From Aulosira sp. ZfuVER01 (lineage in GTDB: Bacteria; Cyanobacteriota; Cyanobacteriia; Cyanobacteriales; Nostocaceae): DNA of 64,000 nt. Shown one piece after another: positions 27,808 to 53,171 of this stretch (position 1 is the stretch's first letter; each line of letters starts with the position of its first letter). The notes under the pieces are model-generated. The model saw only the letters and a list, made by a program, of their open reading frames with translations, searched no databases and was not told the origin of the DNA. A program made the translations under genes and the position numbers. The stretch is taken from assembly GCA_034530615.2 (NCBI GenBank), contig JAVRCV020000066.1, positions 16,576 through 80,575 on the forward strand. Reading direction: 5' to 3'.

Positions 27808-30800
27808 ATGAGCCAGTATCTTTCCAGTAATCTCACTGGTACTGAAGAAACAGAGGTTTTTGTTTTTGCCGCTTCTTTTGCCCAGCAACGGTTATGGTTT
27901 CTCAACCAGTTAGTACCAGGCAATCCATTTTATAATGTGCCAACAGCACTTCGCCTGAGCGGTTCCCTCAACTTCACCGCCTTACAGCAGACATTTAACG
28001 AAATTGTCCGCCGCCACGAAACCTTACGCACTACGTTTGTAATGGCAGAAGGGCAACTTCTACAGGTAATAGCTCCCACCTTAACCATACCTTTGCCTGT
28101 CATAGACCTGCGCAATTTTGAGAGCCAAGAACGCGAACAACAAGCGCAGCGACTCGCAACCGTAGAAGCTCAACATTCTTTCAATCTGAACACCGGGCCA
28201 TTGTTGCGATTGACGCTGCTACAACTTGATGCAGCAGAATATATCCTACTGCTGAATTTGCATCATATTGTTGCTGATGGTTGGTCTATTGGCGTGCTAA
28301 TTAGAGAACTAGGCGCACTATATAAAGCATTTGTCGAGAATAAACCATCGCCTTTGCCAGAACTAACCATTCAGTATGCAGATTTTGCCGAATGGCAGCG
28401 GGAGTGGTTGCAACAAGTTGGAACTAACGGCTGTACACCCCTTGAAACTCAATTAGCTTACTGGAAACAACAGTTAGATGGGGTTTCGCTGCTGAATCTT
28501 GCCACAGACAAGTTAAGGCCGGCGGTTTCCACCTATCAAGGTGCGAAACAATTTATAGAACTACCGCAGTATTTAACTCACAAGCTAGAGCAACTTAGTC
28601 AGCAAACAGGTGTTACCTTATTCATGACTCTGTTAGCAGCATTCGGGACTTTACTTTATCGCTACACCCAGCAAGAGGATATTGCTGTTGGTACGCCTAT
28701 TGCCAATCGCAACCGCAGCGAAATAGAAGGTTTAATTGGTTTTTTTGTTAATAGTTTGGTGTTACGTACTGATTTTTCCGGCAATCCGACGTTTCGAGAA
28801 TTGTTGCAGCGGGTGCGCGAGGTAACTTTGGCAGCATACAACCATCAAGAATTGCCTTTTGAAAAGCTGGTTGAGGAACTGCAACAACAACGAGATTTAA
28901 GTCGCCATCCTTTGTTTGGGGTAGTATTTAGCCTGCAAAATACTCCCATTCAAGCGCTAGAGTTACCAGGGTTGAGGCTTTCGCAGTTTGATTTCGATAG
29001 CAAAACAGCCAAGCTCGATTTAGAGTTTCACCTGTGGCAAGATTTAGAAAGTCTCAAAGGAGAAGTAGTTTATAGCACCGATTTATTTGATGATATTACT
29101 ATTACTCGGATGCTGGGGCATTTCCAAACACTGCTAGAAAGTATTGTTGCCAATTCAGAACAGCGCTTAACAGACTTGCCTTTATTAACTGCAAATGAAC
29201 AGCAGCAGTTATTGATTGAGTGGAATGATACTAAAAGAGAATACGCAGAGAATAAGTGTTTTCATGAGTTATTTGCAGCACAGGTAGAGAAAACGCCGGA
29301 TGCGATCGCGCTAGTATTTGAACAGAAACAGTTAACCTATCGCGAACTCAATACTCAAGCCAACCAACTTGCAAGCTACCTACAACAATTGGGAGTACTC
29401 CCAGATAGTTTAGTTGGGATTTGCGTAGAGCGTTCGCTAGAGATGATAGTTGCACTCTTAGGCATCTTCAAGGCTGGTGGTGCATACCTACCTTTAGATC
29501 CTAGCTATCCTCAAGAACGTCTTCAATTCATGCTAGAAGACACAAAAGTATCAGTTTTGGTAACTCAACAGAAATTTGTTGAGCTTTTTGGGAACGCGGC
29601 AATATCTGTAGTTTACTTGGATCGGGATAGAGAAATAATGGCTTCCCAAAGTCAAGAAAACCCAAATAGCTATGTAACATCTAGCAACTTAGCTTATGTT
29701 ATTTACACCTCTGGCTCAACAGGCAAGCCTAAAGGCGTTTTAATCGAACATCGAGGACTTTCTAACTTAATAAAAGCTCAGATTGAAGTTTTTAACTTGC
29801 AGCGAAGTAACCGTATTCTGCAATTTGCATCCTTAAGTTTTGATGCGGCAATTTTTGAGATTGTCATGGCGCTGGGAACAGGAGCAACTCTATATTTAGC
29901 AAAGCAAGAATCCCTGCTACCCGGTCAAAGTTTAATTCAATTATTGCGCGAAAACGCTATTACTCACATTACCCTTCCACCTGCTGTTTTGGTAGTTCTT
30001 CCTACAGAATCACTTCCCGCATTGGAAACTATCATTTGTGCAGGTGAATCTTGTTCCCAGGAGATTGTAAAACGTTGGTGGAGTCCTAATCGGAGATTTT
30101 TTAACGCTTACGGCCCAACTGAAGTAACCGTTTGGTCAACTATTGCTGAAATTAATTCTATTTGTGAAAAACCGCCCATTGGTCGCCCTATTGCTAACAC
30201 TCAAATTTATATACTAGATAAACATTTACAATCTGTACCAATCGGAATTCCTGGTGAAATATATATTGGTGGTCAGGGAATTGCACGAGGCTACCTCAAC
30301 CTTGATGAATTAACTTTTGAAAAGTTCATCTCTAATCCTTTTGCCAAAGTAGAAGGAAGTCGTCTATATAGAACAGGTGATTTAGCTCGTTATCGACCAG
30401 ATGGCAATATTGAATTTTTGAGTCGCATCGATAATCAAGTAAAAATTCGCGGCTTCCGTATTGAGTTGTTAGAGATTGAATCAGTACTAAATCAGCATGA
30501 AAGTGTGGCAGAAGCAGTAGTGGTGGCTCAAGAAATTGTATCTGGTGAAAAGGACTTAGTAGCTTATATTGTTCCCAAATTAAAGCAGACAGAAATAACA
30601 AATAAACTACGAATATTTATCAAAGATAAATTACCAGAATACATGGTTCCAAAAATCTTTGTAATATTAGATTCTCTACCCCTCACTCCTAATGGCAAAG
30701 TTAACCGCCAAGAACTAGCAGAACTTGATATTTCAAATAGCCGTTCCATAGATAAAATCTTTATCGCTCCTCGTAATTCAACCGAGTTAAAGTTGGCAGA

Positions 30801-31890
30801 AATTTGGGCTGAAGTGCTGAAAATTGAGCGTATAGGTATTTATGATAACTTTTTTGACTTGGGAGGTAATTCATTACTGTCTGTACGTTTATTAGAACAT
30901 ATACATCAGCAATTTGAGCGTGATTTACCGTTATCTACCTTATTTTTAAACCCAACAATTGAAAGTTTAGCTACTTCTTTATCAACAAAAACAGATTCTC
31001 TACCTTGGTCGCCTTTAGCTAAGATTCAGCCTACTGGCTCCAATCCACCTTTTTTCTGTGTTCATCCTATTTTTGGTGTTGTCTTTCCTTATTACGAATT
31101 AGCTCATCATTTAGGAAATAATCAACCATTTTATGGGTTGCAATCTATAGGTATTGATGGGAAAAATGCTCCGCTAACTAGTATTGAAGATATGGCTAGC
31201 CACTACATTAAAGCATTACGTCAAGTGCAGCCAAAAGGCCCTTATTTTTTAGGCGGTTGGTCTTTTGGTGGTTTCGTTGCTTTTGAAATGGCTCAACAAC
31301 TTCTAAAGTCTGGGGATGATGTGGCTCTAGTTGCTATGCTAGACACTTTAGCACCACTTCCTGAAAATATACCTTCCTTAGGTAAGAGCTTGAAGTTTCT
31401 TCTTACTACCGTGGCGCGAGATATATGGCCTTTTTTCTTGCAATATTGTTGTCTCATAGCGGCTTATATCAAAACTAAAATTAATAATTTAATTTCTCAA
31501 ATTTTTAATAAATTTAATGAAGCGTCAGAGACTAATTTATTATCGCACATACTTTTAAAACAGGGTTCTAGAATCAAGTTAATATCTGAGAGGAAGAATT
31601 TAGGTCTGTTAAATGAATTAGCAATTATCCCAATCTTGCGTACTTTCTACGCTAATAGCCAAGCAGTTATCAACTATATTCCACAAGTGTACCCTAAGCA
31701 AATTACTCTGTTTAAAACAAGTAAGACATCACGTATGGCTGAGAAGGATTTGAGTATGGGGTGGGATAAGTTGGCTGTCGAGAAAACAGAAATTCATACT
31801 ATTCCCGGTAATCACCTCACCATTTTGAGAAAGCCTAATATCCAAGTTCTGGCTGCAAAGTTGAAAGCTTGTATTGAAAAGAGGATTTAG
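27808..31890 (+). CDS. Single-module NRPS C-A-T-TE (A code read by hand DAFTIAAVWK, Phe-like)
   Basis: HHIVADGWS; YTSGSTGKPKG, NAYGPTE, YRTGD, NGK; FFDLGGNSL carrier; GGWSFGG and PGNH thioesterase. Confidence 0.95.
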   Translation: MSQYLSSNLTGTEETEVFVFAASFAQQRLWFLNQLVPGNPFYNVPTALRLSGSLNFTALQQTFNEIVRRHETLRTTFVMAEGQLLQVIAPTLTIPLPVIDLRNFESQEREQQAQRLATVEAQHSFNLNTGPLLRLTLLQLDAAEYILLLNLHHIVADGWSIGVLIRELGALYKAFVENKPSPLPELTIQYADFAEWQREWLQQVGTNGCTPLETQLAYWKQQLDGVSLLNLATDKLRPAVSTYQGAKQFIELPQYLTHKLEQLSQQTGVTLFMTLLAAFGTLLYRYTQQEDIAVGTPIANRNRSEIEGLIGFFVNSLVLRTDFSGNPTFRELLQRVREVTLAAYNHQELPFEKLVEELQQQRDLSRHPLFGVVFSLQNTPIQALELPGLRLSQFDFDSKTAKLDLEFHLWQDLESLKGEVVYSTDLFDDITITRMLGHFQTLLESIVANSEQRLTDLPLLTANEQQQLLIEWNDTKREYAENKCFHELFAAQVEKTPDAIALVFEQKQLTYRELNTQANQLASYLQQLGVLPDSLVGICVERSLEMIVALLGIFKAGGAYLPLDPSYPQERLQFMLEDTKVSVLVTQQKFVELFGNAAISVVYLDRDREIMASQSQENPNSYVTSSNLAYVIYTSGSTGKPKGVLIEHRGLSNLIKAQIEVFNLQRSNRILQFASLSFDAAIFEIVMALGTGATLYLAKQESLLPGQSLIQLLRENAITHITLPPAVLVVLPTESLPALETIICAGESCSQEIVKRWWSPNRRFFNAYGPTEVTVWSTIAEINSICEKPPIGRPIANTQIYILDKHLQSVPIGIPGEIYIGGQGIARGYLNLDELTFEKFISNPFAKVEGSRLYRTGDLARYRPDGNIEFLSRIDNQVKIRGFRIELLEIESVLNQHESVAEAVVVAQEIVSGEKDLVAYIVPKLKQTEITNKLRIFIKDKLPEYMVPKIFVILDSLPLTPNGKVNRQELAELDISNSRSIDKIFIAPRNSTELKLAEIWAEVLKIERIGIYDNFFDLGGNSLLSVRLLEHIHQQFERDLPLSTLFLNPTIESLATSLSTKTDSLPWSPLAKIQPTGSNPPFFCVHPIFGVVFPYYELAHHLGNNQPFYGLQSIGIDGKNAPLTSIEDMASHYIKALRQVQPKGPYFLGGWSFGGFVAFEMAQQLLKSGDDVALVAMLDTLAPLPENIPSLGKSLKFLLTTVARDIWPFFLQYCCLIAAYIKTKINNLISQIFNKFNEASETNLLSHILLKQGSRIKLISERKNLGLLNELAIIPILRTFYANSQAVINYIPQVYPKQITLFKTSKTSRMAEKDLSMGWDKLAVEKTEIHTIPGNHLTILRKPNIQVLAAKLKACIEKRI

Positions 31891-32025
31891 GACATTTTTA
31901 AATTCACAAGGGAATTTTTGACTTTTATAGTCGTATTCAGCAATGCGAAATTTTAACTTTTGCGATCGCACTCCAAAATCTGAGCTAGCGTAAAAATATT
32001 ATGCTTATGCAACCATCTATAGCTT

Positions 32026-33027
32026 GTGGACACGCAAAAAGTCGCAGTCTTGAATAGTCCGGCTTGCTACTTCCCCCTGATGAACGGACGCTACGAAGTT
32101 AAGCCAGGGATGATGGCGTTTGGCTCTGATTTCGGTAATGGTGAAGCTGATAGACAAGTGTTTCAAATTGATGAAAATTTTGCTGATTATCGCCAGGCTA
32201 AACTTTTAGCGCGTGCCGAACGGTTGAGTAAATACTACCAGACCTATAAATATTCTACAGTTGTGGCAGGTGCGATCGCTCGTTTGATAGTTGAGCGTCT
32301 CACCCAAGATCATCCACAATACTTTGGCTACCAAAAATCAACAGCAAACACCTTGATATTTCATAGCCAACTCACCAAAGAAACGCTTTATCTAGATGCA
32401 GACTGGCAATTACAGCAAGTCGAGGGTAGTTCAGTTTTTCCAGCTTACACTTCTACCCTTGATGCTCTAGCAGGACAGATACAAGAAGACCTCACAGTTA
32501 TCTGTCGTGGAAACAATGGTTGCAATTGGCTGAGTGCGGTTCATTTATGCTATCCCAATCATTGGTCAGCTGAGGACAAAATTGGTAAAGATTTTGCAGC
32601 CATCCATACGCCTGTTGCAGGTATAGAAAAAATTAATCACCGAGCAGATGCGATCGTTAAGACTATGATTACTAATAAACCAATGGTGCGTTTTGCTTGG
32701 GGTTTGAGTACCGATACTCGCCTAAACCACCATCCCGAACCACCGCCTGGTTTTTCAGTTAACCAGTGGCAAGGTAGAAACTTTGATCCTCAAAATCCTA
32801 GACTTTACTTGCGAATTGAGCGCCAAGTAATTTGGGGACTACCAGAGTATGAAGCAGCATTATTTACTATTCGTACTTATTTCAGAGATTGTAGCTCAAT
32901 CAAAAAAGATTCACAGTTACGAGTTAAACTGTTTGCTGCGATTGAGTCTATGACACCAGAATCACTGGTTTATAAGGGATTAGCAGCCAGTAAAGCTAGT
33001 ATTTTACATTGGCTAAATGAAGTTTGA
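32026..33027 (+). CDS. DUF3445 / heme-dependent oxidative N-demethylase alpha-subunit-like protein
   Basis: QEDL, VHLCYPNHW..EDKIGK.F..IHTPVAG, RFAWGL, LRIERQ, LFTIRTY are the motifs I associate with DUF3445. Confidence 0.82.
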   Translation: MDTQKVAVLNSPACYFPLMNGRYEVKPGMMAFGSDFGNGEADRQVFQIDENFADYRQAKLLARAERLSKYYQTYKYSTVVAGAIARLIVERLTQDHPQYFGYQKSTANTLIFHSQLTKETLYLDADWQLQQVEGSSVFPAYTSTLDALAGQIQEDLTVICRGNNGCNWLSAVHLCYPNHWSAEDKIGKDFAAIHTPVAGIEKINHRADAIVKTMITNKPMVRFAWGLSTDTRLNHHPEPPPGFSVNQWQGRNFDPQNPRLYLRIERQVIWGLPEYEAALFTIRTYFRDCSSIKKDSQLRVKLFAAIESMTPESLVYKGLAASKASILHWLNEV

Positions 33028-33119
33028 AAAATTACCAAAATAGTAAATATTGTTTGATATAAGACTTACACATTTGCATAAAATACCCAATATGTATGAT
33101 TTAAGAAACCACATTGATT

Positions 33120-33347
33120 GTAGGGGTTTAGCATTGCTCACTGGTGTCAACTTAAGCTTAGAAGCATACAGCGTAAGTCTTTGGGGTTCTCTCTCTTAAC
33201 ACCATAAACTTTTGATCCCCCCTAACCCCCTTAAAAAAGGGGGAATTAGAATCTTAGCCCCCTTTTTAAGGGGGTTGGGGGATCAAATATCTTACAACAA
33301 AGGGTTTCACGTTAAGTTGACATGTATAAGCATTGCTAAACCCCTAC
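33120..33347. mobile_element. Nested miniature element (palindromic GTAGGGG..CCCCTAC repeat > TGTCAACTTAA-ended MITE > GATCCCCC hairpin)
   Basis: gtaggggtttagcattgct...agcattgctaaacccctac; inner TIRs at 33145-33155 / 33312-33322; homologous copy at 55372-55648. Confidence 0.8.
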
Positions 33348-33403
33348 AGTGCTAACAATTTTTAATCCAAAATATAAAATTCAAAATTGATATAAGGTGC
33401 AAT

Positions 33404-36400
33404 ATGTCTTCTGAAGAAGTTTTTGTCTTTCCAGCATCTTTCGCTCAACAACGGCTGTGGTTCCTCGAGCAGTTGAATCCCGGTGATAGTATTTACAATG
33501 TGCCTACAGCAATTCGTTTAACAGGTTCGCTGAACTTAGCGGCGCTAGAGCAGACGTTTAACGAAATTGTGCGTCGCCACGAGGTTCTCCGTACTAGCTT
33601 TACAGTGTTGGATGGACAACCTTTGCAAGTTATATCACCCAGCTTAACAATACCTCTTAGTCTATTAGACCTACAGCAATTACCAATTGATACACGGGAG
33701 GCTGAAGCAAAACGCATTATTAGCGCCGAAATAGAACATCCTTTTGATTTGTCCTTCGGGCCGTTGCTGCGAGTAATATTACTTGAGCTTTCCCAGACAG
33801 AACATATTCTATTGCTGAATATGCACCACATAATTTGTGATGATTGGTCGATTGGCTTGCTAATTCGGGAAATCAGCCTTATCTACACAGCTTTTACCCA
33901 AAACCAACCCTCGCCTTTGTTAGAACTACCTCTTCAGTATGCTGACTTTGCCCATTGGCAACGCGAGTGGTTGCAAGGAGAAGTTTTAGAAACCCAATTA
34001 GCTTACTGGCGGCAACAATTGAACGGTATTTCAATGCTAGATTTGCCTAGCGATAAAAAGCGGCCAAATATACAAACCTATCAAGGAGCAATAGAATTTT
34101 TAGAGTTACCGCCACAGCTAACTAATGCACTCGAAGCACTGTCCCAGCAAGAAGGTGTCACTTTATTTATGACTATGCTGGCAGCATTTCAAACTTTACT
34201 TTATCGCTACACCCATCAAGAAGATATTACAGTAGGTTCGCCAATTGCTAACCGTAACCGTAGTGAAATTGAAGAATTAATTGGTTTTTTTGCAAATAGT
34301 TTGGTGTTACGTACTGACCTCAGTGGAAACCCAACTTTTAAAGAACTGCTAGGCAGAGTACGAGATGTCACCCTCGGAGCATACAGTCACCAAGATTTAC
34401 CTTTTGAAAAATTAGTTGAAGAACTGCAGCCAGAGCGAAATTTGAGCCACAATCCCCTATTCCAAGTGGTGTTTGGTTTCCAGAATGCCCCAATGTCAGC
34501 ACTAGAACTGCCTGGGCTAGTGCCTAGTTTTATGAATATTGACTTACAAAAAATCCGCTTTGATTTAGAGTTGAACTTGTGGAAGTGTTCTGAAGATTTC
34601 CGAAGCCTATGGGGAGGTAAATGGCAGCTTTCTGAAGGTATTAGAGGTGTAATGGTTTACAACACAACTTTGTTTGAAAAATCTACCATTACCCGGATGT
34701 TAGAACATTTTAAAATATTGTTATCAAGCATTGTGAGAAATGCAGATCAACCTATCAGTAATTTCTCATTACTGAGTGGACAGGAGCTACATCAGATATT
34801 AGTAGAGTGGAATGATACTCAGGCAGATTATCCTCTAGATAAGTGTATTCATCAATTATTTCAAGAGCAGGTAAAGCAGTATCCCGATTGCATAGCTGTA
34901 AGCTTTAATAATCAGCAACTCACTTATCGAGAGTTAAATAATCGCAGTAATCAACTTGCTCACTATTTACAAAAACTGGGTGTAAAATCTGAAGTTTTAG
35001 TAGGAATTTCTGTAGAGCAATCAATAGAATTTATTGTAGGTTTACTGGGGATTCTCAAAGCAGGCGGAGCATATCTGCCATTAGACTCTAACTATCCTCA
35101 AGAACGCATTAATTTCATGTTGGCAGATGCAAAAGTTTCTGTGTTACTGACCCAAGAAAAGTTTCTCAAGCATTTTATAGAATTTCCGCATCCAAGTATT
35201 TGTATAGATAAAGACTGGGGAATGATCACTCAAGAGAGCGAAGAAAATATTACAAGCAACGTCAGCAGCAATAATTTAGCTTATGTAATTTACACTTCTG
35301 GTTCTACAGGGAAACCTAAAGGAGTAGCTGTAACTCACAAAGCTGTAAATCGGTTGGTGTGCAATACCAACTATATAAATTTAGAACCTACTGATAAAGT
35401 TGCTCAAGCCTCAAATATTTCCTTTGATGCAGCAACATTCGAGATTTGGGGAGCGCTACTGAACGGCGCTCAACTTGTTGGCATTAGCAAAGATGTCATC
35501 CTTTCACCTCAAGAATTGACATTACAGCTAAAACAAAAAGGCATCAGCGTTCTGTTTTTAACTACTGCTTTATTCCAACAAATTGCCAGAAATACTCCCC
35601 AAGCTTTTGCAACCTTGCGCTATTTGCTGTTTGGTGGCGAAACTATTGATATTAGATGGGTAAGAAAAATTATTAAACATGGTGCGCCAAAGCAGTTAAT
35701 TCATGTATATGGGCCTACAGAAAGTACAACATTTTCTGCTTATTACCAGGTGCAAGAAGTACCAGAATTAGCTATATCTATTCCTATCGGTCGCCCAATT
35801 ACAAATACGCAGATTTATCTACTGGATGCTAATTTACAACCTGTTCCCATTGGTGTTGTTGGCGAGTTGTACATTGGGGGTGATGGACTAGCGCGAGAAT
35901 ATCTCAACCGACCTGAGTTAACTGCTGAATCCTTCATTACAATTCCGGAAACAGGGTTTATTGCAGAGGAAAGACTTTACAAAACAGGTGACTTAGGTCG
36001 CTATTTAATAGATGGCAATATTGAATTTTTAAGTCGCATTGATAACCAAGTCAAGATTCGCGGTTTCCGCATTGAATTGGGAGAAATTGAAGCAGTACTA
36101 AGTGAACATCCAGCAGTGCAGCAAACTGTAGTAATTGCGGCTGAAGATATCCCTGGAGAGAAGCAATTGGTAGCTTACATTGTTCCTCATCAAGAACAAA
36201 GCCCAACAAGCGTTGAGTTACGTCAATTCATGGCAGCAAAGTTACCAGAATATATGCTACCAACAGCTTATATATTACTAGAATTTCTACCATTATCACC
36301 CAATGGTAAAGTGGATCGCCGTGCTTTACCTGCACATGATACACTCACTTTTAATCAACAAGATTATGTAGCACCCAGAACGCAGATTGAAGATTTACTT

Positions 36401-36664
36401 GCGGAAATTTGGGCTAAGGTTTTAGGAAAAGAACAAGTAGGTATTCATGATAATTTCTTTGAATTAGGTGGTCATTCTTTACTAGCGACTCAGTTAGTGT
36501 CTCGAATTCGAGATACTTTGCAAATAGATGTGCCTGTACGCAATTTATTTGAAGCGCCAACTGTAGAACAACTGGCTAGATATATTGAAACAATGTCTTG
36601 GTTAACACAAGGATTAGATAGATCTGAAGGTGGCGGAACTCAGCGCGAGGAAGTGGAATTTTAA
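33404..36664 (+). CDS. Single-module NRPS C-A-T (A code read by hand DAFFLGVTFK, Ile-like)
   Basis: HHIICDDWS; YTSGSTGKPKG, HVYGPTE, YKTGD, NGK; FFELGGHSL; C-terminal QREEVEF tail. Confidence 0.95.
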   Translation: MSSEEVFVFPASFAQQRLWFLEQLNPGDSIYNVPTAIRLTGSLNLAALEQTFNEIVRRHEVLRTSFTVLDGQPLQVISPSLTIPLSLLDLQQLPIDTREAEAKRIISAEIEHPFDLSFGPLLRVILLELSQTEHILLLNMHHIICDDWSIGLLIREISLIYTAFTQNQPSPLLELPLQYADFAHWQREWLQGEVLETQLAYWRQQLNGISMLDLPSDKKRPNIQTYQGAIEFLELPPQLTNALEALSQQEGVTLFMTMLAAFQTLLYRYTHQEDITVGSPIANRNRSEIEELIGFFANSLVLRTDLSGNPTFKELLGRVRDVTLGAYSHQDLPFEKLVEELQPERNLSHNPLFQVVFGFQNAPMSALELPGLVPSFMNIDLQKIRFDLELNLWKCSEDFRSLWGGKWQLSEGIRGVMVYNTTLFEKSTITRMLEHFKILLSSIVRNADQPISNFSLLSGQELHQILVEWNDTQADYPLDKCIHQLFQEQVKQYPDCIAVSFNNQQLTYRELNNRSNQLAHYLQKLGVKSEVLVGISVEQSIEFIVGLLGILKAGGAYLPLDSNYPQERINFMLADAKVSVLLTQEKFLKHFIEFPHPSICIDKDWGMITQESEENITSNVSSNNLAYVIYTSGSTGKPKGVAVTHKAVNRLVCNTNYINLEPTDKVAQASNISFDAATFEIWGALLNGAQLVGISKDVILSPQELTLQLKQKGISVLFLTTALFQQIARNTPQAFATLRYLLFGGETIDIRWVRKIIKHGAPKQLIHVYGPTESTTFSAYYQVQEVPELAISIPIGRPITNTQIYLLDANLQPVPIGVVGELYIGGDGLAREYLNRPELTAESFITIPETGFIAEERLYKTGDLGRYLIDGNIEFLSRIDNQVKIRGFRIELGEIEAVLSEHPAVQQTVVIAAEDIPGEKQLVAYIVPHQEQSPTSVELRQFMAAKLPEYMLPTAYILLEFLPLSPNGKVDRRALPAHDTLTFNQQDYVAPRTQIEDLLAEIWAKVLGKEQVGIHDNFFELGGHSLLATQLVSRIRDTLQIDVPVRNLFEAPTVEQLARYIETMSWLTQGLDRSEGGGTQREEVEF

Positions 36665-36857
36665 CGTCGCCTAAGAATTTCTCATACTATCAGCCTTATG
36701 GTTGGTAGTTTTAAGTATAAATACTTGTCTTCTGCTGAAAGATATATTTACACACATAATATTTTATGAAAAAATGTATTATATATCACTCTCTAGGTTA
36801 AAGATAACCGTATAGCAAAACTATGAAATAGAGACAGCAGATAATATCTAATTTTTT

Positions 36858-37226
36858 ATGAACTATATTTTGATTTGTGATGATGTTTTGGATAACTGTA
36901 TTTTCCTTCAAACAATTTTAGAATTAGAAGGTTATACAGTTGAGGTTGTCACATCTGGAATCGACGCCATCAATAGAATTAGGCATCAAAAGCCTGATTT
37001 GTTAATGTTAGACTTAATGATGCCTGATATTAATGGTTTTGAAGTTGCTAATATCATTCAACAAGATAAACATTTACAATCTTTGCCTATTTTGATCGTT
37101 ACCGCGTATCAAGAAGCAATTGAATCAAAGCCAGTTCATATAAAAGTAAATGGAATTTTAGAAAAGCCTGTAGATGTTGATACCTTGGTTCAAAAGGTTC
37201 AAGACATTTTAAATGTTGTAAAATAA
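36858..37226 (+). CDS. Single-domain response regulator (CheY-like)
   Basis: ILICDD, DLMMPDING, VTA, EKPV. Confidence 0.88.
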   Translation: MNYILICDDVLDNCIFLQTILELEGYTVEVVTSGIDAINRIRHQKPDLLMLDLMMPDINGFEVANIIQQDKHLQSLPILIVTAYQEAIESKPVHIKVNGILEKPVDVDTLVQKVQDILNVVK

Positions 37227-37227
37227 G

Positions 37228-37614
37228 CTAATCTAAAATTTTTCTAACTTGATAAGTTACAGTATCAAAGTCAACAGGTTTTTGAATATATCCGTCAATC
37301 TTTAACTCAATATATTTTTTGTTATTTATATCAAAAAAATCTTCCTTCCATCCTGTTACTAATAAGATAGGAATATCTTTGAATTTATCAGATTGTCTAA
37401 TCTTACTTGCAACTTCAAACCCATCCATTACAGGCATCAACACATCTAATATTATTAAGTCTGGTAAGTTAATACTATTTTTTAGAAAAGCAAGTACTGC
37501 TGCAGCTGAATCGACTATTTCAATATAACAGTCATCTGCTAATAGTATTGCTTCTAAAAGTCTTGCATCATCAGCAACATCATCGCAAATTAAAATCTGC
37601 TTTACAGTATTCAT
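37228..37614 (-). CDS. Single-domain response regulator (CheY-like)
   Basis: ILICDD, DVLMPVMDG, VTG, QKPV. Confidence 0.88.
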   Translation of the reverse strand: MNTVKQILICDDVADDARLLEAILLADDCYIEIVDSAAAVLAFLKNSINLPDLIILDVLMPVMDGFEVASKIRQSDKFKDIPILLVTGWKEDFFDINNKKYIELKIDGYIQKPVDFDTVTYQVRKILD

Positions 37615-37874
37615 GAGTATCTTGTAGCGGTAAGAAGCTACAGGAGAAAATATTTAATAATTTCCGAAAAAATGCTTTATTCCAATTGAAATTATCATAC
37701 ATTTGTTTATAACGGTAATAAAAGTAGAAGTTACCGTATAGTTGATGACGGATTTCCTAATTCAAATGCTCAGAGTATTTGAAAAAGTAAAACACACCTG
37801 CCCTGGCAAATGAAATTCGCGCGCCAGTTGCTTTAAGAGTATTCCAAAAAATAAATTATCCAGAATCAAAACCT

Positions 37875-37949
37875 GTCATTGCGAGCGAAACGGAGTGTAG
37901 CGAAGCAATCTCAAGCTCTCTGCGATTGCTTCGCTACGCTCGCAATGAC
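37875..37949. repeat. Palindromic dispersed repeat GTCATTGCGAG...CTCGCAATGAC
   Basis: gtcattgcgagcg...gtagcgaagcaatc / gattgcttcgctacgctcgcaatgac long inverted repeat. Confidence 0.75.
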
Positions 37950-38132
37950 TGTAATTAATTTTGCGTGGTTACTTATATTTGCTAGTTTTCGCCTTCTTTG
38001 CAAAAAACTGAGATGCTCCTCATTCCTATAGATATATATAGCCAATCTATATTAATTACTTCTAAAGCTAAATACTAAAGTAAAGAATATCAACTTTAAT
38101 ATTATTAATTACTAAAATACGATCTACTCATC

Positions 38133-38396
38133 ATGAGAGAAATTGTAACTTTTTTCTTTGGCTTAGGTTTTGTATTTAATGCTAGCTTGTTTATTCCACA
38201 AGCTTGGCGAATATTGAAAACCAAAAGCGCTAGGAATATTTCTTTAATTACTTTCGCTGGGTTTAATCTTATTCAGTTCGATGGAACTCTCTATGGATAT
38301 TATCAAAATGATTTGATTTTGATGTACGGTAATTTAATTAGTTTTATTAGCTGTGGAATAGTAACATTGTTGGCAACATACTATAGAAATAAATAA
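38133..38396 (+). CDS. SemiSWEET / PQ-loop small membrane transporter
   Basis: 87 aa, three TM segments, FIPQAWRILKTKSARNISL, YG, and a conserved Asn in TM3. Confidence 0.8.
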   Translation: MREIVTFFFGLGFVFNASLFIPQAWRILKTKSARNISLITFAGFNLIQFDGTLYGYYQNDLILMYGNLISFISCGIVTLLATYYRNK

Positions 38397-38422
38397 CTTG
38401 GCGTCTTAGCGATTTATTCCTG

Positions 38423-39541
38423 CTAATGATTGACTCTACACTCAGCACAAAAATTGCTGACTGCTTCAGCAAACTGCTGGTTTTGCTCCATTAATGCCAT
38501 GTGTCCGCCAGGTGTGATTGTAACTCTCTGAGAATAAGGTAACTCTGCTTTCATGCGATCGCTCGCCACTGGTTTAGTTGCTATATCGGAAGCACCACAC
38601 ACAACCAACGCTGGAACGTTAATATTTGCCAGCGTTTTGGTTTCATCGAACTTGAACATTGCTAGTGTGCCACGAGCCAGAACACCAGGGGAACCCAAAG
38701 CTGATAACAACCCAGCAAAATTGAGTTGACCGCGTGTTTCTGTACCCGTAAATCCAGAAAGTTCTACAGTGATGTAGAGCGAACCATTGAGATAAGAAAG
38801 CCAAGTCATTAACCACAAAATTGGTGATAGCACAGTAGTCAGGTACAACAGCGGTTCCAGCAACGGCTTTTGTAATTTACGTACTACACCGCTAAAGATA
38901 CAAGTTTTCAACGGATTAGTGTAAGTCGTATCGACAAGAATTAAGCCAGCAACTCTGCGTCCCAAATGCTCTGGAAACAGGCGGCAAAATGTTAGGTTAA
39001 TCATGCCACCCATGCTGTGTCCTAATAAAATCACAGGCTTATCCCCGGCGATAGCAACAACAGCTTCTAAATCACGGGCATATTTTTCTAAAGAATAATC
39101 CTTGTTTTTTGGTCTAGAGGATTTTCCCAAGCCTGGTAAATCCCAAACAATCACGCGAAAGCGATCGCTTAATTGTCGTTTGGCATAATACCATACAGTA
39201 CTGTTTGGCCCCCAACCATGTGAAAAGATAATCGGTTGACCATCCTCGGGGCCAAAAAACTCTACTTGCAGTACGCTACCATCTGGTCGTGACAAACGCT
39301 GTACGCTTTGGCTACGCATGAACTGCGGTTCGTCTGAACCAGGACGGCGCAGTAATGGCAAACTGATAAAACGACCGCCAAAAGACCACAGTACCATTAC
39401 TAGTCCAGCCACCAAGTAGGAAGTTCCTACAATTTCTCGTTCATACCATTCATAGAGAATGTAGATTCCCCCGCTAAGTATTCCAACCGACAGCAGTTGA
39501 ACTAGCCATATCAGCAGGAAATTATGAGGCATGAATATCAT
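38423..39541 (-). CDS. Membrane-anchored alpha/beta fold hydrolase
   Basis: Two N-terminal TMs; HGWG, WDLPGLG, GHSMGG nucleophile, GASD, GGHM. Confidence 0.88.
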   Translation of the reverse strand: MIFMPHNFLLIWLVQLLSVGILSGGIYILYEWYEREIVGTSYLVAGLVMVLWSFGGRFISLPLLRRPGSDEPQFMRSQSVQRLSRPDGSVLQVEFFGPEDGQPIIFSHGWGPNSTVWYYAKRQLSDRFRVIVWDLPGLGKSSRPKNKDYSLEKYARDLEAVVAIAGDKPVILLGHSMGGMINLTFCRLFPEHLGRRVAGLILVDTTYTNPLKTCIFSGVVRKLQKPLLEPLLYLTTVLSPILWLMTWLSYLNGSLYITVELSGFTGTETRGQLNFAGLLSALGSPGVLARGTLAMFKFDETKTLANINVPALVVCGASDIATKPVASDRMKAELPYSQRVTITPGGHMALMEQNQQFAEAVSNFCAECRVNH

Positions 39542-39833
39542 GAGCCTAAACCTTGCGCACTGTGTTGTCTTTATAGCTACATAACACAGTTATAAAGATG
39601 AATCTTTCAACCCCAGGAATGATTTATCGAGTGCTATGGGTGTGATAAAAAGGCATTTGTCATTCGTCATTTGGCGTTTGGTATTTGTTATTTCTCCCCT
39701 GCTCCCCTTCGGGTGACGCTCCTTCGTCGCTAACGCTGCGCTAACGCCAGTCCCTCATCGGGACGGAGATCGCCAAGACGGGGTCTGGTCTCACCTGCTT
39801 CCTGCCCCCTGCCTCTTACCCAAGGGTTTCATT

Positions 39834-42800
39834 TTGAAAACGTTTGAATTCTTATCTTATCTTCGCAACTTAGATATTCAAGTTTTTATTGATGGCGAAA
39901 TATTGCGCTGTAATGCTCCTGAAGGAAGTTTAACAGCAGAACTCCGTAGAGAAATTCAAGACCGTAAAGCAGAAATTATTGAATTTTTGCAAACTGCTAA
40001 TCGTACTAATAATTATACTTCTACTCCGCTTCTACCTATTTCCCGCACCGGAAATCTTCCTCTATCCTTTGCTCAACAAAGACTGTGGTTTCTCGATCAA
40101 CTATTACCTAACAATCCTTTTTATAACGTTCCGGCAGCATTGCATTTAAAAGGTAGGCTTAATTTAGCAGCGCTAGAGCAAAGTTTTAACGAAATTGTGC
40201 AACGTCACGAAGCTTTACGCACTAATTTTGTTATGCAGTCCGGGAAACCAGTTCAGGTAATTAAATCCCTATTAAAAATATCATTACCAATCATAGATTT
40301 GCGGCAACAGCCACCAGCCGAACTCGAAACAGAAGCACAAAAACTTATTACCCAAGAAGCTCAAAGACCTTTCAATTTAGCAACAGATTCTTTACTACGA
40401 GTAAGACTGTTGCAATTGGATGAAGCAGAATATATCTTGCTGTTGAATATCCACCACATTGTTTCCGATGGTTGGTCTATTGGGGTGCTATTTCAAGAAA
40501 TTGCCGCACTCTACACAGCTTTTACTAATAAACAGCCTTCTCCTTTACCGCAACTAAAAATTCAATATGCAGATTTTGCTCAATGGCAACGCCAATCACT
40601 GCAAGGGGAAGTTTTAGAAAATCAATTAGCTTACTGGCGAAAGCAATTAAGTAATATTTCTATACTCAATTTACCTACCGACAAACCACGGACAGCCGTT
40701 CAATCTCACCGAGGTGCAAGGCAATTTATAAAACTACCTAAAAGCTTGAGTGCAGCGCTTTTAACTTTTTCCCAGCAGGAAGGTGTAACTTTATTCATGA
40801 CTCTGCTGGCGGCATTCCAAATATTACTTTACCGCTACACTCAGCAAGAAGATATTGCTGTCGGTTCACCTATTGCCAACCGAAACCGCAGTGAAATTGA
40901 AGGATTAATTGGATTTTTTGTGAATAGTTTGGTGTTGCGTACCAACTTCAGCGGAAATCCAACTTTTAGAGAATTATTGAGGCGAGTTAAAGAAGTCGCT
41001 TTAGGAGCTTACGCTCATCAAGATTTGCCTTTTGAAAAGCTGGTAGAGGAACTGCATCCAGAACGAAATTTAAATCAAAACCCTTTATTTCAAGTAGCAT
41101 TTGCAGTACAAAATGCGCCGATGTCGGCGTTAGAGCTACCTGAATTAACAGTCAATACTTGGCCCTTTGATAGTGGAACAACGCGCTTTGATTTAGAGTT
41201 TCACTTGTGGGAGCCGGAAAAAAAGAATGGTTTCTGGGTAGATAGTTCGGAAGAAATTAGCGGTTTTGTGATTTACAGCACTGAGTTATTTGATGATGCT
41301 ACTATTACTCGGATGCTGGAACATTTCCAAATATTACTTGAGGGTATAGTTGCAAATCCAGAACAAAGAATCGCTGAGTTACCCCTTTTAAGTGAATCGG
41401 AGTTACATCAGTTATTAGTGGTATGGAATAATACCAGAGTAGATTATCCTCAAGATAAGTGCATCCATCAATTATTTGAGGAAATTGTAGAGCAAAATCC
41501 CGATGCACAAGCACTTGTATTTCAAGAGCAACAACTTACCTATCAAGAGTTAAATCAACGCAGTAACCAACTTGCACATTATCTCAAAAAATTAGGCGTT
41601 GGAAGCGAAGTTTTAGTAGGGCTTTGTGTAGAACGTTCTTTTGATATGGTAATCGGGATGTTAGCTATCCTGAAAGCAGGCGGAGCATACTTACCTTTAG
41701 ATCCAAACTATCCGCCTGAGCGTTTAAAATTTATGCTTGCAGATGCGCAAGTGTCAATTTTATTAACTCACCAGCAATGGGTTGAACGTTTAGGCGATTA
41801 CAATTCGCAGATAATCTGTTTGGATAAAAATTGGAAAGTTATTGCTCAAGAAAGTGAAGATAATCTTTCTAGCAAAGTTACAGTAGAAAACCTTGCTTAT
41901 GTCATTTATACCTCTGGCTCCACAGGAAAGCCTAAAGGTGTAGAAATTGAGCATAGAGGATTGTTAAATCTAATTTTTTGGCATCAAAAAGCTTTTACAA
42001 TTTCATCTCATGACCGAGTAACACAGATTGCTGGGATTGCTTTTGATGCTTGCGGTTGGGAAATTTGGCCTTACCTAACTGCTGGGGCAAGTATTTATAT
42101 TGTAGATGATGAAATTAAGCGATCGCCTGAGCATCTCAAAGATTGGCTGATATCAAAAGCTATCACAATTTCTTTTTTACCAACACCTTTGGCTGAGAAG
42201 ATTATATCATTAAATTTTTCTCAACATTCAGCTTTAAGAATATTACTAACAGGTGGAGATAAACTACATGAATATCCTTTAGCTTCCCATACTTTCCAGG
42301 TAGTTAACAACTACGGGCCTACAGAAAATACAGTTGTGACAACTTCCGGGCAAGTTAATGTTAAAAATCAAGGTAATATAACACCTACAATTGGTCGTCC
42401 CATTGCGAATACACAAGTTTATATACTAGATAAAAATTTACAACCTTTACCTATTGGCGTTCCTGGGGAATTATACATTAGTGGTGATGGTTTAGCGCGT
42501 GGATATTTAAACCGTGCAGATTTAACTGCTGAATGCTTTATGAAGGCAGAGGGCAGATGGCAGAAGGCAGAAGAAGGAAGAGAAGCAGGAAATCGTTTGT
42601 ACAGAACAGGTGATTTAGTTCGCTATCAATTAGATGGCAATATTGAATTTTTAGGTCGCCTTGATGAGCAGGTAAAAATTCGCGGCTATCGCATTGAGTT
42701 GGGAGAAATTGAAGCAGTAATAAATCAGCATCCAGCAGTAGAGCAAACTGTAGTAATAACTTATGAGGATGCAGGTGAGAAACGTTTAGTAGCTTATGTT

Positions 42801-44564
42801 GTTCTGAATAGTGAATCCAGCAGCAAGCAAGAAAATCAGCAGTTAATGGAATTGCAAGAGGAGCAGGTTTTGCAATGGCAAATGCTCTATAACGAAACTT
42901 ATCATCAATCTGCTGCCGATTTAGATCCAAAATTTAATTTTATTGGCTGGAATAGTAGTTATACAAATAAGCCTATTCCAGTAGAGCAAATGCGTGAGTG
43001 GATAGATAACCAAGTCGCGCAAATTTTAGCTTTGCAACCACAGCGAGTATTAGAAATTGGGTGTGGAACAGGTTTAGTGCTTTTTAGAATTGCTCCTCAC
43101 TGTTCTCAATATTATGGAACAGATTTTTCTCCGATTTCAATTAACTACATCCAACAGCAGTTGGCAAAGCAAGCAATACCGCAAGTAACGCTACATCAAA
43201 AGATGGCTGATGATTTTGCGGGAATAGAAGCAGCAGCTTTTGATGTGGTAATTATCAACTCTGTTGTGCAATATTTTCCTAGTATTGATTATTTAATTCG
43301 CGTAATAGAAGGTGCTGTAAAAACAACTGCGCCTGGTGGTTTTATCTTTTTAGGAGATGTGTGTAACCTACGACTTTTACAAGCTTTTCATGCATCTGTG
43401 CAACTATATCAAGCTGAACCTTCTTTAACCCGCGCCGAGTTGCAGCAACGGGTACAAATGCAACTTTTCCAAGAGACAGAGTTAGTCATCGATCCTGCTT
43501 TTTTTAATGCATTGAAGCAGCAATTTCCCCAAATTAGCCACGTACAAATTCAACTGATTCGGGGAAAAGAAAGTAATGAGTTAACTCAGTTTCGTTACAA
43601 TGCTATTCTTCATATTAGCAGCGAACAGCAGGAAAGCAGAGAAATACAATGGCTAGACTGGCGTGAAAACAATTTAACAATATCATCAGTAGATCGGTTA
43701 TTAAATGAGAAGCAACCAGAGATTTTAGCTATTACCAATGTACCGAATGCACGGGTAATAGCAGCAGTGAAAACAGCAGCATGGCTAGCAGGTGAAGAAG
43801 ATTTGCAAACAGCAGGCCAGATGCGTAAGGCTTTGCAAGAAATAGAGAATTTAGGAGTAAATCCCGAAGAATTTTATGAGCTGGCTAATCTACTTCCTTA
43901 CAGAGTAAATATTAGCTGCTCAGATTCTAGTAGTGAAGGAGATTATGATGTAGTTTTTGTACAGGAAGAAGCAATAAATCAAAAAATTGTTTTACCACAC
44001 AGCACCCAACAACGTGCATGGTCTTCTTATGCAAATAATCCCCTACAAGCTAAAGCAGCACGTAAGTTAGTACCGCAATTGCAAACTTATTTAACGCAAA
44101 AGCTGCCGGATTACATGATACCGTCTATGTTTGTAGTGCGATCGCACTTACCTCTGACGGCTAATGGTAAAGTCGATCGTCGTGCTTTAAAAGTACCCGA
44201 TTTCATCAACTCAGAATTAGCCGCAGGTTATGTTGCGCCTCGAACTCCCGTAGAACAAGTATTAGCGAAAATTTTTGCTGAGGTGCTAGGAATCAAGCAC
44301 GTTGGTATTCACGACAATTTCTTTCAGCTAGGCGGACATTCTTTATTAGCAACTCAGCTTATTTCCAGAGTACGCGACAGCTTTGGCTTGGAGTTACCTT
44401 TGCGCAGTATATTTGAAGCATCGACAATTGCAGAGTTATCTCAGGTCGTGGAAAGCTTTAAACAAAGCAATACTCAAAGTCAAGCCCCAGCTTTAGTACC
44501 ATTATCCCGTGAAAGTCGGCGGATGAAGTTGTCTTCTTTAAATAAAGAGAGTCAGGAGAATTGA
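39834..44564 (+). CDS. Single-module NRPS: TubC-N-like docking domain - C - A(N-methyltransferase) - T (A code read by hand DAWFLGNVVK, Leu-like)
   Basis: TTG start, EFLSYLRNLDIQVFIDGEILRCNAPEG..KAEIIEFL docking domain; HHIVSDGWS; NNYGPTE; VLEIGCGTG and NSVVQYFP MT inserted in the A subdomain; FFQLGGHSL. Confidence 0.95.
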   Translation: MKTFEFLSYLRNLDIQVFIDGEILRCNAPEGSLTAELRREIQDRKAEIIEFLQTANRTNNYTSTPLLPISRTGNLPLSFAQQRLWFLDQLLPNNPFYNVPAALHLKGRLNLAALEQSFNEIVQRHEALRTNFVMQSGKPVQVIKSLLKISLPIIDLRQQPPAELETEAQKLITQEAQRPFNLATDSLLRVRLLQLDEAEYILLLNIHHIVSDGWSIGVLFQEIAALYTAFTNKQPSPLPQLKIQYADFAQWQRQSLQGEVLENQLAYWRKQLSNISILNLPTDKPRTAVQSHRGARQFIKLPKSLSAALLTFSQQEGVTLFMTLLAAFQILLYRYTQQEDIAVGSPIANRNRSEIEGLIGFFVNSLVLRTNFSGNPTFRELLRRVKEVALGAYAHQDLPFEKLVEELHPERNLNQNPLFQVAFAVQNAPMSALELPELTVNTWPFDSGTTRFDLEFHLWEPEKKNGFWVDSSEEISGFVIYSTELFDDATITRMLEHFQILLEGIVANPEQRIAELPLLSESELHQLLVVWNNTRVDYPQDKCIHQLFEEIVEQNPDAQALVFQEQQLTYQELNQRSNQLAHYLKKLGVGSEVLVGLCVERSFDMVIGMLAILKAGGAYLPLDPNYPPERLKFMLADAQVSILLTHQQWVERLGDYNSQIICLDKNWKVIAQESEDNLSSKVTVENLAYVIYTSGSTGKPKGVEIEHRGLLNLIFWHQKAFTISSHDRVTQIAGIAFDACGWEIWPYLTAGASIYIVDDEIKRSPEHLKDWLISKAITISFLPTPLAEKIISLNFSQHSALRILLTGGDKLHEYPLASHTFQVVNNYGPTENTVVTTSGQVNVKNQGNITPTIGRPIANTQVYILDKNLQPLPIGVPGELYISGDGLARGYLNRADLTAECFMKAEGRWQKAEEGREAGNRLYRTGDLVRYQLDGNIEFLGRLDEQVKIRGYRIELGEIEAVINQHPAVEQTVVITYEDAGEKRLVAYVVLNSESSSKQENQQLMELQEEQVLQWQMLYNETYHQSAADLDPKFNFIGWNSSYTNKPIPVEQMREWIDNQVAQILALQPQRVLEIGCGTGLVLFRIAPHCSQYYGTDFSPISINYIQQQLAKQAIPQVTLHQKMADDFAGIEAAAFDVVIINSVVQYFPSIDYLIRVIEGAVKTTAPGGFIFLGDVCNLRLLQAFHASVQLYQAEPSLTRAELQQRVQMQLFQETELVIDPAFFNALKQQFPQISHVQIQLIRGKESNELTQFRYNAILHISSEQQESREIQWLDWRENNLTISSVDRLLNEKQPEILAITNVPNARVIAAVKTAAWLAGEEDLQTAGQMRKALQEIENLGVNPEEFYELANLLPYRVNISCSDSSSEGDYDVVFVQEEAINQKIVLPHSTQQRAWSSYANNPLQAKAARKLVPQLQTYLTQKLPDYMIPSMFVVRSHLPLTANGKVDRRALKVPDFINSELAAGYVAPRTPVEQVLAKIFAEVLGIKHVGIHDNFFQLGGHSLLATQLISRVRDSFGLELPLRSIFEASTIAELSQVVESFKQSNTQSQAPALVPLSRESRRMKLSSLNKESQEN

Positions 44565-44655
44565 TTCAGAAAGGCAGAAGGCAGGGGGCAGAGGGCAAAA
44601 GGTTTTAGGATTAAAATAGCAGGTAAAATAAGAGAGTCTAAAACCATGCACAGCC

Positions 44656-44907
44656 ATGACCACTAAAATTACATTAGAAATTGATGAAGCTTTGCTCCAA
44701 AAAGCAGAACGTTGGGCGAAGCAACAACAATTGTCGCTTTCTGATGTAATTTCCAATTTTCTACGTCAGTTACCAGAATCTGATTTAATAGCCCAAAATG
44801 AACATGCTTTAGCAAAGTTTGCTGGAATTTTGAGTGATTCTGAAGCTAGAGAATTACAGCAGGCGATCGCAGCAGAGTTTGACCAGATAGACACAAATGA
44901 ATGGTAA
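44656..44907 (+). CDS. Putative RHH-type antitoxin (VapB-like)
   Basis: MTTKITLEIDEALLQKAERWAKQQQLSLSDVI; overlaps the downstream PIN gene by 11 bp. Confidence 0.75.
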   Translation: MTTKITLEIDEALLQKAERWAKQQQLSLSDVISNFLRQLPESDLIAQNEHALAKFAGILSDSEARELQQAIAAEFDQIDTNEW

Positions 44908-45286
44908 TGTAGCCTTGGATACTTCTGTCGCAGTGCGTTTTTTGAATGGCGATGAAGCAGTTGTGGCTCAGGTATTAGCATTGACAAAAGTTATTCTACC
45001 AACTGTGGTTGTGGGTGAATTATTGTTTGGTGCGGAAAATTCAAGTCGTTCTTTACAAAATCTACCGCGTTATCTAGAGTTTATTGAAACCTGTGAAGTA
45101 GTAACTTTAGGTCGAGAAACTGCGGTAATGTATGCTCGAACTCGGTTGGCATTGAAGCAGAAGGGGCGACCGATTCCAATGAATGATGTTTGGATTGCAG
45201 CCCAGTGTTTAGAACATGGTTGGCGGTTGGTCACGGATGATTCAGATTTTGCCTATGTAGATGGGCTGATCTTGGAAAGATGGTAA
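44897..45286 (+). CDS. vapC: PIN-domain toxin
   Basis: ALDTSV, GELLFG, GRPIPMNDVWIAA, VTDDSDF. Confidence 0.9.
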   Translation: MNGNVALDTSVAVRFLNGDEAVVAQVLALTKVILPTVVVGELLFGAENSSRSLQNLPRYLEFIETCEVVTLGRETAVMYARTRLALKQKGRPIPMNDVWIAAQCLEHGWRLVTDDSDFAYVDGLILERW

Positions 45287-45365
45287 TAGAATTCTATACA
45301 ATTGCTTGTTACAGATACACAATGCACTAGAACCAACAGTTTAAAGTTTATTCAACACTCAAAAT

Positions 45366-46196
45366 ATGCCAAGTGGTGTTCATGATTCAGCCTTGATTGT
45401 TAACGCTTTTCGCGCCAGAAAAATTCATATTAGTGCCGATAAATTTGCAGCATTATGGATTTCACCAGAAAGCGATATCTGGGCAAATAAGTATGCAGAA
45501 CAAGTTGGCTCGACGGAAATTTTAGTACACGCCCTGCGCCATAGATTTTTTCTTGAGTGTTTAAATAAATTTTTTGATAAGTCTTCAGATGGCGTATTTA
45601 TTAATATTGGCGCTGGATTTACAAACTATCCCTACCTAATATCATTAAAAATTCCTTGCTGTGAAATTGATACAGAAGTCAACATCAAATTCAAGCAGCA
45701 AAAGCTAGCCGAGTTTGAACTTAAGGGCAATTTTCCTTATCGCCAGCTTCAATTTATAACTGTGAATGATTTGAACGATTTGCCTGAGATTTCTCATCTG
45801 GAGTTAGTTTTGAGAGAATGGATAGGCGATCGCTCCTCATTTATACTTTTTGAAGGTGTGTTCTTTTACTTAAAAATTGAAGCGATCGGTCATTTTTATA
45901 GAATGTTAGCTGCTCTACAGCAGAGAGGCGATATTGTAGCTAGCACTTCATTTCGTCCAGAAGAATGTAACAAATTAATGTTTCAAAGGCTGGTAGATTA
46001 TTGCAGAACAGATTACAAAATGAGGAATTTTACACCTACAACAATTTCTACAAGCTTTTATTCTCAGCAATCAAACTATTCCTTAGTCACTCATAAAAAT
46101 TATTACAGTTTGTGCCAGGAGTTTGCTTTGGCAGAAACACTAGAAAATCCAGAGGAAGTTTTAGAGGAAGACTGCTATGTCCTAGAACGGCTGTAG
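45366..46196 (+). CDS. Class I SAM-dependent methyltransferase, leucine carboxyl methyltransferase (LCM)-like
   Basis: SA...RA, LRHRFF, INIGAGF, EID, K..KL, FEGVFFYL match the LCM family layout. Confidence 0.75.
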   Translation: MPSGVHDSALIVNAFRARKIHISADKFAALWISPESDIWANKYAEQVGSTEILVHALRHRFFLECLNKFFDKSSDGVFINIGAGFTNYPYLISLKIPCCEIDTEVNIKFKQQKLAEFELKGNFPYRQLQFITVNDLNDLPEISHLELVLREWIGDRSSFILFEGVFFYLKIEAIGHFYRMLAALQQRGDIVASTSFRPEECNKLMFQRLVDYCRTDYKMRNFTPTTISTSFYSQQSNYSLVTHKNYYSLCQEFALAETLENPEEVLEEDCYVLERL

Positions 46197-47373: not shown

Positions 47374-47437
47374 TTAGAGTTAGTGGTTCAGTAGAATGAG
47401 CGATCGCCCGATTATTTTAACAGTGCGATCGCTCCCT

Positions 47438-47668
47438 AAACTAGCATTTGCGGTTGTTGAACTAGCATTTGCGGCTGTTGAACTAGCATTTGCGGCTGTT
47501 GAACTAGCATTCGCGGCTGTTGAACTAGCATGTGCGGCTGTTGAACTAGCATTCGCGGCTATTGAACTAGCATTTGCGACTGTTGAAGTAGCATTTGCGG
47601 CTGTTGAACTAGCATCTGCGGCTAGTGAACTAGCATTTGCGACTCGTGAACTAGCATTCGCAGCTAAT
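47438..47668. repeat. 11 x 21-bp tandem repeat (consensus GAACTAGCATTTGCGGCTGTT)
   Basis: Counted directly: 11 contiguous units without spacers; open on both strands (ELAFAAV)n / (ANASSTA)n. Confidence 0.95.
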
Positions 47669-47839
47669 TTCGGCAAATATACTCTTACTTATCCATTTTG
47701 CTCATCTTAATGCCTACAAACTTCTGTACCTTCACTGTGGCTGGTGTATTTGTTTATTGCGTATTGTAAAAGTATCTAAAGAACTCAGTACAAAAAGCTA
47801 TCAGGGTTCTTTTTACCACCATGTAAACAGGAAAACTTT

Positions 47840-53149: not shown

Positions 53150-53171
53150 TATTCCCGCCCCGAAGGGGCTA

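Follow-up and report, generated by a model that had tools for sequence, protein, structure and literature searches.

A widespread three-subunit nonribosomal peptide synthetase cluster of Aulosira sp. ZfuVER01 with docking termini that may allow cyclic subunit use

The 64,000 nucleotides of Aulosira sp. ZfuVER01 analysed here (contig JAVRCV020000066.1, hereafter the window) contain a nonribosomal peptide synthetase (NRPS) cluster that, judged from its sequence, is real and intact and apparently functional. Its three subunits, named A, B and C in their proposed order of action, are predicted to use Ile, N-methyl-Leu and a Phe-like residue. The cluster is very probably a member of the orphan family CF-39, to which it was matched by size, gene content, taxa and shuffling, that is, by description and not by sequences, and this CF-39-type cluster is far more widespread than was reported in 2014. 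Regarding the product, the reading that is tentatively preferred is a loop in which subunit B would pass the chain back to subunit A until subunit C takes it over, so that (Ile-NMeLeu)n-Phe would be made rather than one tripeptide. Such cyclic use of subunits is apparently an unreported possibility. If it is true, the line would iterate in alternation under the control of docking, a logic of use in NRPS engineering, and colinear predictions for the cluster family would be wrong.

Gene content, predicted substrates and order of the subunits

The three NRPS reading frames (Table 1) are uninterrupted and encode one module each, in agreement with a first-pass annotation of the window, and the A-domain core motifs, carrier serines, SAM motif and TE Ser/Asp/His motifs were all found in them. 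The TE module is indeed encoded first, as had been stated. The claim that each synthetase begins with a C domain holds for subunits A and C, but subunit B opens with a beta-hairpin docking domain, which matches those of AerJ (8AQQ) and TubC (2JUG), and the earlier gene list had overlooked an alpha/beta-hydrolase gene on the minus strand. Trio and hydrolase together span 16.8 kb, and the unit amounts to about 13 kb of coding DNA. Scanning of 44 window proteins gave no match to the PKS, FAAL, E, MbtH or PPTase families, as previously noted; the single PPTase of the genome sits on another contig, and MbtH had no match in the genome.

Table 1. Features of the cluster and its surroundings (window positions)
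Feature	Position	Strand	Remarks
NRPS subunit C (last in line)	27808-31890	+	1360 aa, C-A-T-TE
Subunit C acceptor-type N-terminus	27853-27885	+	acidic beta-strand-like motif
HODM alpha-subunit-like gene (PF11927)	32026-33027	+	
NRPS subunit A (first in line)	33404-36664	+	1086 aa, C-A-T
Subunit A acceptor-type N-terminus	33416-33448	+	
Subunit A C-domain loop insert	34598-34624	+	Trp-containing, family-specific
Subunit A acidic C-terminal docking motif	36644-36661	+	
Low-GC insert	36858-38396		two stand-alone response regulators and semiSWEET-like gene; outside conserved unit
Serine alpha/beta-hydrolase	38423-39541	-	hydrophobic N-terminus, head-to-head with subunit B, conserved companion
NRPS subunit B (second)	39834-44564	+	1576 aa, TubC_N beta-hairpin docking domain-C-A-MT-T
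Subunit B basic C-terminal docking tail	44493-44540	+	
VapBC-type toxin-antitoxin pair	44656-45286	+	passenger
LCM-type methyltransferase (PF04072)	45366-46196	+	behind VapBC pair

The same annotation had allowed for the genes being silent fragments or serving separate pathways, which is highly improbable. Broken, split or partial copies do occur in other genomes (G008, G380, G190, G203, G239, G002 and G011; in the last two, the TE subunit persists but has no intact subunit A next to it), and the genes of the trio lie apart in G174, G034 and G379. However, the window frames are whole with all motifs kept, pairwise dN/dS across all NRPS domains was 0.11-0.31 (0.07-0.12 for the hydrolase), the markers of subunits A and C occurred together in 106 of the 120 genomes having either, and the termini of the subunits are complementary.

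Two local features of the coding sequences were also observed. Positions 42534-42602, in the A domain of subunit B, hold an in-frame genomic short repeat (a 24-mer found 47 times in the genome when up to two mismatches are allowed). The C domain of subunit C has nine extra codons relative to the other two C domains (28417-28443), which are single-copy in the genome and so are not a dispersed repeat.

Substrate calls rest on ten-residue codes read at motif-anchored positions in GrsA numbering, rather than by alignment to GrsA itself. On re-reading, the codes were identical to those given before: DAFFLGVTFK for subunit A and DAWFLGNVVK for subunit B, which we take to stand for Ile and Leu, respectively, and DAFTIAAVWK for subunit C. 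They are almost constant across relatives. The Ile and Leu codes also turn up in the available passages of papers on cyanopeptolin and laxaphycin, and DAFTIAAVWK was absent from the papers searched, including the supplement of PMC12283262. In a tree of 166 A-domain cores, the DAFTIAAVWK domains form their own clade (support 0.98), nested in a group with DAWTIAAVCK and DASTIAAVCK domains (support 0.99). From this position, the substrate of subunit C is likely aromatic and Phe-like, with a non-canonical code. The earlier prediction of a hydrophobic, N-methylated peptide from these three residues is supported.

The order of action was read from the termini, with classes of tail and N-terminus defined by home-made patterns. 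The C-terminus of subunit A carries an acidic-hydrophobic motif, and the first domain of subunit B is the TubC_N beta-hairpin; in unrelated NRPS pairs, beta-hairpin N-termini stood behind an acidic tail, by pattern, in 16 of 19. The basic tail of subunit B has invariant P, R, R and S. An acceptor N-terminus is common to subunits A and C in all listed rows where the motif was found, and it lay behind a carrier domain in 11 of the unrelated pairs listed (with a basic tail in nine by pattern and in two by eye), 24 other pairs being unclassified; one basic-tail match preceded a KS. Within the cluster, only subunit B carries a basic tail matching that acceptor N-terminus. These docking termini, together with the colinear relatives, point to the order A, B, C, that is, Ile, N-methyl-Leu and the Phe-like residue followed by the TE. 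With high confidence, subunit A would load Ile and its acidic tail would bind the beta-hairpin domain of subunit B, where Leu would be added and N-methylated. It is nearly as probable that the basic tail of subunit B would then dock on the N-terminus of subunit C, which would add the aromatic residue before the TE releases an acid or a ring. The same basic-tail/acidic-strand junction was observed in another NRPS-PKS cluster of this genome (G000:C8:113309-129724), so that cross-talk with subunit A is conceivable.

Distribution, gene order and neighbouring genes

The C domain of subunit A was matched at 72-88% identity in 112 of 389 genomes of the family (about 29%), so the cluster is not rare. 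The A core of subunit C was matched in 122 of the 389, of which 114 were kept, the sole matches in the eight dropped genomes being weaker and at paralog level. Since carrier genomes are related and not independent, these counts describe spread and not significance. Carriers include Nostoc, Scytonema, Tolypothrix, Hassallia, Brasilonema and Mastigocladopsis; in Microcoleus vaginatus HSN003, the trio plus hydrolase is colinear. In a second cyanobacterial family, the hydrolase marker was found in 17 of 25 genomes, and the NRPS trio was present in five of those, all five that were examined. Protein Atlas entries gave generic names only. With purifying selection in about 29% of family genomes, the metabolite probably matters widely to cyanobacteria of soils and symbioses.

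The TE-first order, previously regarded as scrambled, is that of the majority: among 34 non-redundant relative loci with all three genes, 23 are arranged as in the window and 11 are colinear (A-B-C), and G003, which was read separately, is also TE-first. Neighbouring genes touch or overlap at the colinear loci L029, L032 and G509. Copies were found on plasmids of five Nostoc strains, and the complete ones in Nostoc sp. 5183 (L153, NZ_CP026694.1, beside a tyrosine recombinase) and NIES-3756 (L154, NZ_AP017296.1) indicate that the unit moves; plasmid copies are not mentioned in the available passages of PMC5987646 and PMC8600333. A small unit, plasmid-borne in cultured strains and with computed masses for its products, is directly testable.

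The hydrolase marker was found in 82 of the 120 NRPS-marker-positive genomes versus 18 of the 269 others, and in 59 of the 78 genomes with both, no more than 12 kb separated it from subunit A. At all 25 loci having the gene (41 examined, some counted twice), it lies upstream of subunit B and is read from the other strand. It is not exclusive to the cluster, given the 18 genomes without an NRPS marker and five of ten loci outside the family without an adjacent trio, and about a third of the carrier genomes (38/120) had no hydrolase match. Its predicted role would likely be to trim, edit or release chains at the membrane.

The HODM-like gene (PF11927, which we take to be the former DUF3445) and the LCM-type gene are on the plus strand, as had been noted. 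Their membership in the cluster is not supported, since they occur at one and none of the 34 relative loci, respectively; both are also present in G003. The HODM-like gene matched 25 of 61 relatives and adjoins an NRPS at three of 17 loci examined, all in the genus of the window and only in one sub-clade of it. With no NRPS nearby at the other 14 loci, a role as tailoring enzyme was rejected, and the gene is probably a passenger. A role of the LCM-type gene as C-terminal methylase was likewise rejected (matches in three of 61 genomes, one partial), and this gene too is regarded as a local passenger. The two response regulators, the semiSWEET-like gene and the VapBC pair are local to the window, all but the last being low in GC. 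A sucrose-phosphate-synthase-like GT4 glycosyltransferase, absent from the window, lies inside the cluster at 12 of 34 loci (e.g., L026:13566-15098), three of which also hold a repeat-rich protein, LEA-like by eye; it may hint at glycosylation or at a link to drying stress.

Further features were observed in the flanking DNA. Directly upstream (23780-27607), a 1275-aa protein combines a CHAT protease-like domain, an NTPase and TPR repeats, and is not at this position in the relatives examined. Genes for a flavin amine oxidase, a protein-arginine deiminase (PAD + PAD_M), a P450 and a GMC oxidoreductase are grouped at 51631-59051 and are unlinked to the NRPS in the relatives examined. A low-complexity stretch at 47380-47710 can be read, in frames of either strand, as repeats of seven residues.

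The first C domain and the length of the chain

The C domain of subunit A appears LCL-like. Among solved structures, it is closest to elongating C domains of the teixobactin and tyrocidine synthetases, and it shares 61% identity with the C domain of subunit C. In an AlphaFold model (pLDDT 73), it has an ordinary C fold in which the invariant Trp-containing insert is a short helix and loop. The motif is altered to HHxxxDD (MHHxxCDD): all 35 rows examined, chosen by domain architecture because a choice by the motif itself would be circular, keep both His and the Asp, with Asp or Glu replacing the motif Gly. Values of dN/dS were 0.12-0.15 in six comparisons, similar to those of the other two C domains. 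A metagenomic variant (L217:9968-18168) has a first module with a Leu code, a canonical HHxxxDG and no loop insert.

The altered motif was considered as a sign of a dead domain and rejected, because the domain is under purifying selection, the HHxxxD[D/E] variant is also found in internal C domains of other NRPSs, and the FscG C3 domain, with HHxxxDE and thus also an acidic residue in place of the motif Gly, is active according to the available passages of PMC8097023 (75% Leu conversion versus 92% after mutation to Gly). FscG C3 is, however, an internal domain with a Gly acceptor, whereas that of subunit A is N-terminal with an Ile-code acceptor. In a single pass, this C domain would be a silent scaffold for the A domain and the products would be free Ile-NMeLeu-Phe, a TE-made cyclodimer (775.51 computed) or a diketopiperazine (241.19). 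This is the simplest reading of three modules; the motif is non-canonical, and a silent N-terminal C domain has been proposed for NcpA1 in the part of PMC7551626 available. However, NcpA1 lost the second His, which subunit A keeps in all 35 rows. Selection as strong as on working C domains and the presence of the same variant in internal modules also speak against a single pass, which is rather unlikely.

Several sources of a starter group were considered. SylC, for instance, starts its chain with a C-A-T module. Ureido-forming C domains (SylC, SnaA), which are close to LCL domains, carry the signature EHHXXHDG in the accessible text of PMC11212132; it is absent from the C domain of subunit A, which has MHHxxCDD instead, and a ureido starter was rejected. 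A missing loader elsewhere in the genome was rejected as well: the remaining NRPS/PKS genes group into clusters of their own, and no small carrier protein other than the fatty-acid ACP was found in the genome. The 34 relative loci held no FAAL, no CoA ligase or ACP gene travelling with the cluster and one PKS, unrelated and on the opposite strand; FAAL-ACP or PKS loading genes, a feature of microginin-like lipopeptide NRPSs, were not found in the cluster.

An alternative that is somewhat unlikely is that the C domain of subunit A derives from LCL domains and acts as a starter, which would cap Ile with an acyl group from acyl-CoA or fatty acyl-ACP to give N-acyl-Ile-NMeLeu-Phe, with the hydrolase removing or editing the cap. 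A free-amine Ile-NMeLeu thioester would be prone to loss as a diketopiperazine, which favours an N-cap, as it would prevent this loss. The dedicated motif change, the invariant insert and the membrane-tethered serine hydrolase head-to-head with subunit B (25/41 loci, some counted twice) are consistent with acylation, and N-terminal C domains commonly acylate (PMC11546977, passages available). On the other hand, the nearest solved relatives are elongating domains, the identity to the C domain of subunit C is 61%, no acyl-loading gene travels with the cluster, subunit A keeps a protein-acceptor N-terminus, and the hydrolase has no match in 38 of the 120 carriers.

A two-gene form found in Leptolyngbyaceae narrows the choice of donor. 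At L041:9965-19020 and L061:113-9006, which are 82% identical in the C domain, an Ile module is followed by an N-methylating module (DAFLIGAIWK) with a fused TE, and the basic tail is kept between T and the fused TE. No other NRPS was found in the L041 genome, an assembly whose completeness is not stated, and the only three carrier domains there are the two of the cluster and a fatty-acid ACP beside fabF. Together with the termini, these carriers leave as donor the T of subunit B, a second copy of subunit A, the fatty-acid ACP, a CoA ester or no donor at all; the presence of the ACP among so few candidates counts in favour of acylation.

The loop is favoured over both N-acylation and a single pass, since subunits A and C share the acceptor terminus, the matching donor tail is only on subunit B, and the two-gene relatives keep that tail. 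A C domain in subunit A that looks alive (motif kept, selection, elongating relatives) and the lack of an acyl-loading gene with the cluster add to its support. The basic tail of subunit B might also dock on the N-terminus of subunit A; the C domain there would then extend the chain with another Ile, and chain length would be set by competition between subunits A and C, as in rhabdopeptide synthetases. Computed [M+H]+ values for such products are 406.27, 646.45 and 886.64 (linear, n = 1-3) and 628.44 and 868.63 (cyclic), with steps of 240.18 along the linear series. On the contrary side, the N-terminal strand of subunit A may be conserved because folding needs it, and the tail that persists in the two-gene form (two related examples only) may be left over from a recent fusion. 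The lowered Leu conversion with the acidic motif of FscG suggests that this motif is less than ideal for an acceptor as bulky as Ile, and the invariant insert is unexplained by looping. The peptide had earlier been called short: a tripeptide is possible, yet the termini allow repetition.

With more reserve, a two-subunit cycling line can be proposed in which the two docking types would lock the alternation of Ile and N-methyl-Leu while the third subunit competes to end the chain; among orphan NRPSs of filamentous cyanobacteria, such a line would rank with the most widespread. Its products, proposed with equal reserve, would be alternately N-methylated linear or cyclic peptides, such as a cyclic pentapeptide with [M+H]+ 628.44, in Nostoc relatives and the biocrust builder Microcoleus.

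Comparison with known systems

In the available passages of Calteau et al. (2014, PMC4247773), CF-39 is an NRPS-only orphan family of 4-6 genes and 11.5-22.5 kb, with a conserved hydrolase and an unknown product. Eight clusters were counted in 126 genomes, syntenic in Oscillatoria and M. vaginatus and shuffled in heterocystous and unicellular strains, and membership calls for >52% amino-acid identity to the eight listed clusters and for the A-domain predictions of Fig. 5. The cluster described here is alike in being NRPS-only and within 4-6 genes and 11-23 kb (three NRPS genes plus hydrolase over 16.8 kb), in its conserved hydrolase, and in taxa and synteny pattern, the colinear M. vaginatus HSN003 being another strain than FGP-2. 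In addition, a protein named Mastigocladopsis repens (P0084) is 76% identical to subunit A, and M. repens and M. vaginatus are both given as CF-39 carriers in those passages. The differences are the extent, 8/126 genomes in 2014 versus 112/389 family genomes now, and the assembly order, first C domain and docking given here, none of which is in the passages of PMC4247773. Among the papers searched, CF-39 is mentioned only in that one. No product of the cluster is described in them, nor was a high-identity match to a characterised cluster found, the outcome that the first-pass annotation had named as telling against it; MIBiG and subscription journals were outside this search. The claim of an undescribed pathway thus stands as to one pathway with no described product found, but not as to its being unmatched, given CF-39.

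Rhabdopeptide/xenortide (RXP) synthetases N-methylate and release their chains by a stand-alone terminal C domain through amine capture. Here, release would be by the TE after the third residue (C-A-T-TE) and not by a terminal C domain. In the parts of Hacker et al. (2018, PMC6195595) available, single-module RXP subunits, up to three in number and with TubC-like docking domains, are used non-linearly, and docking affinity sets the length. The window subunits are all three single-module, and one of the three has a beta-hairpin docking domain. All RXP subunits share one docking type, whereas the two types found here would force alternation between subunits A and B.
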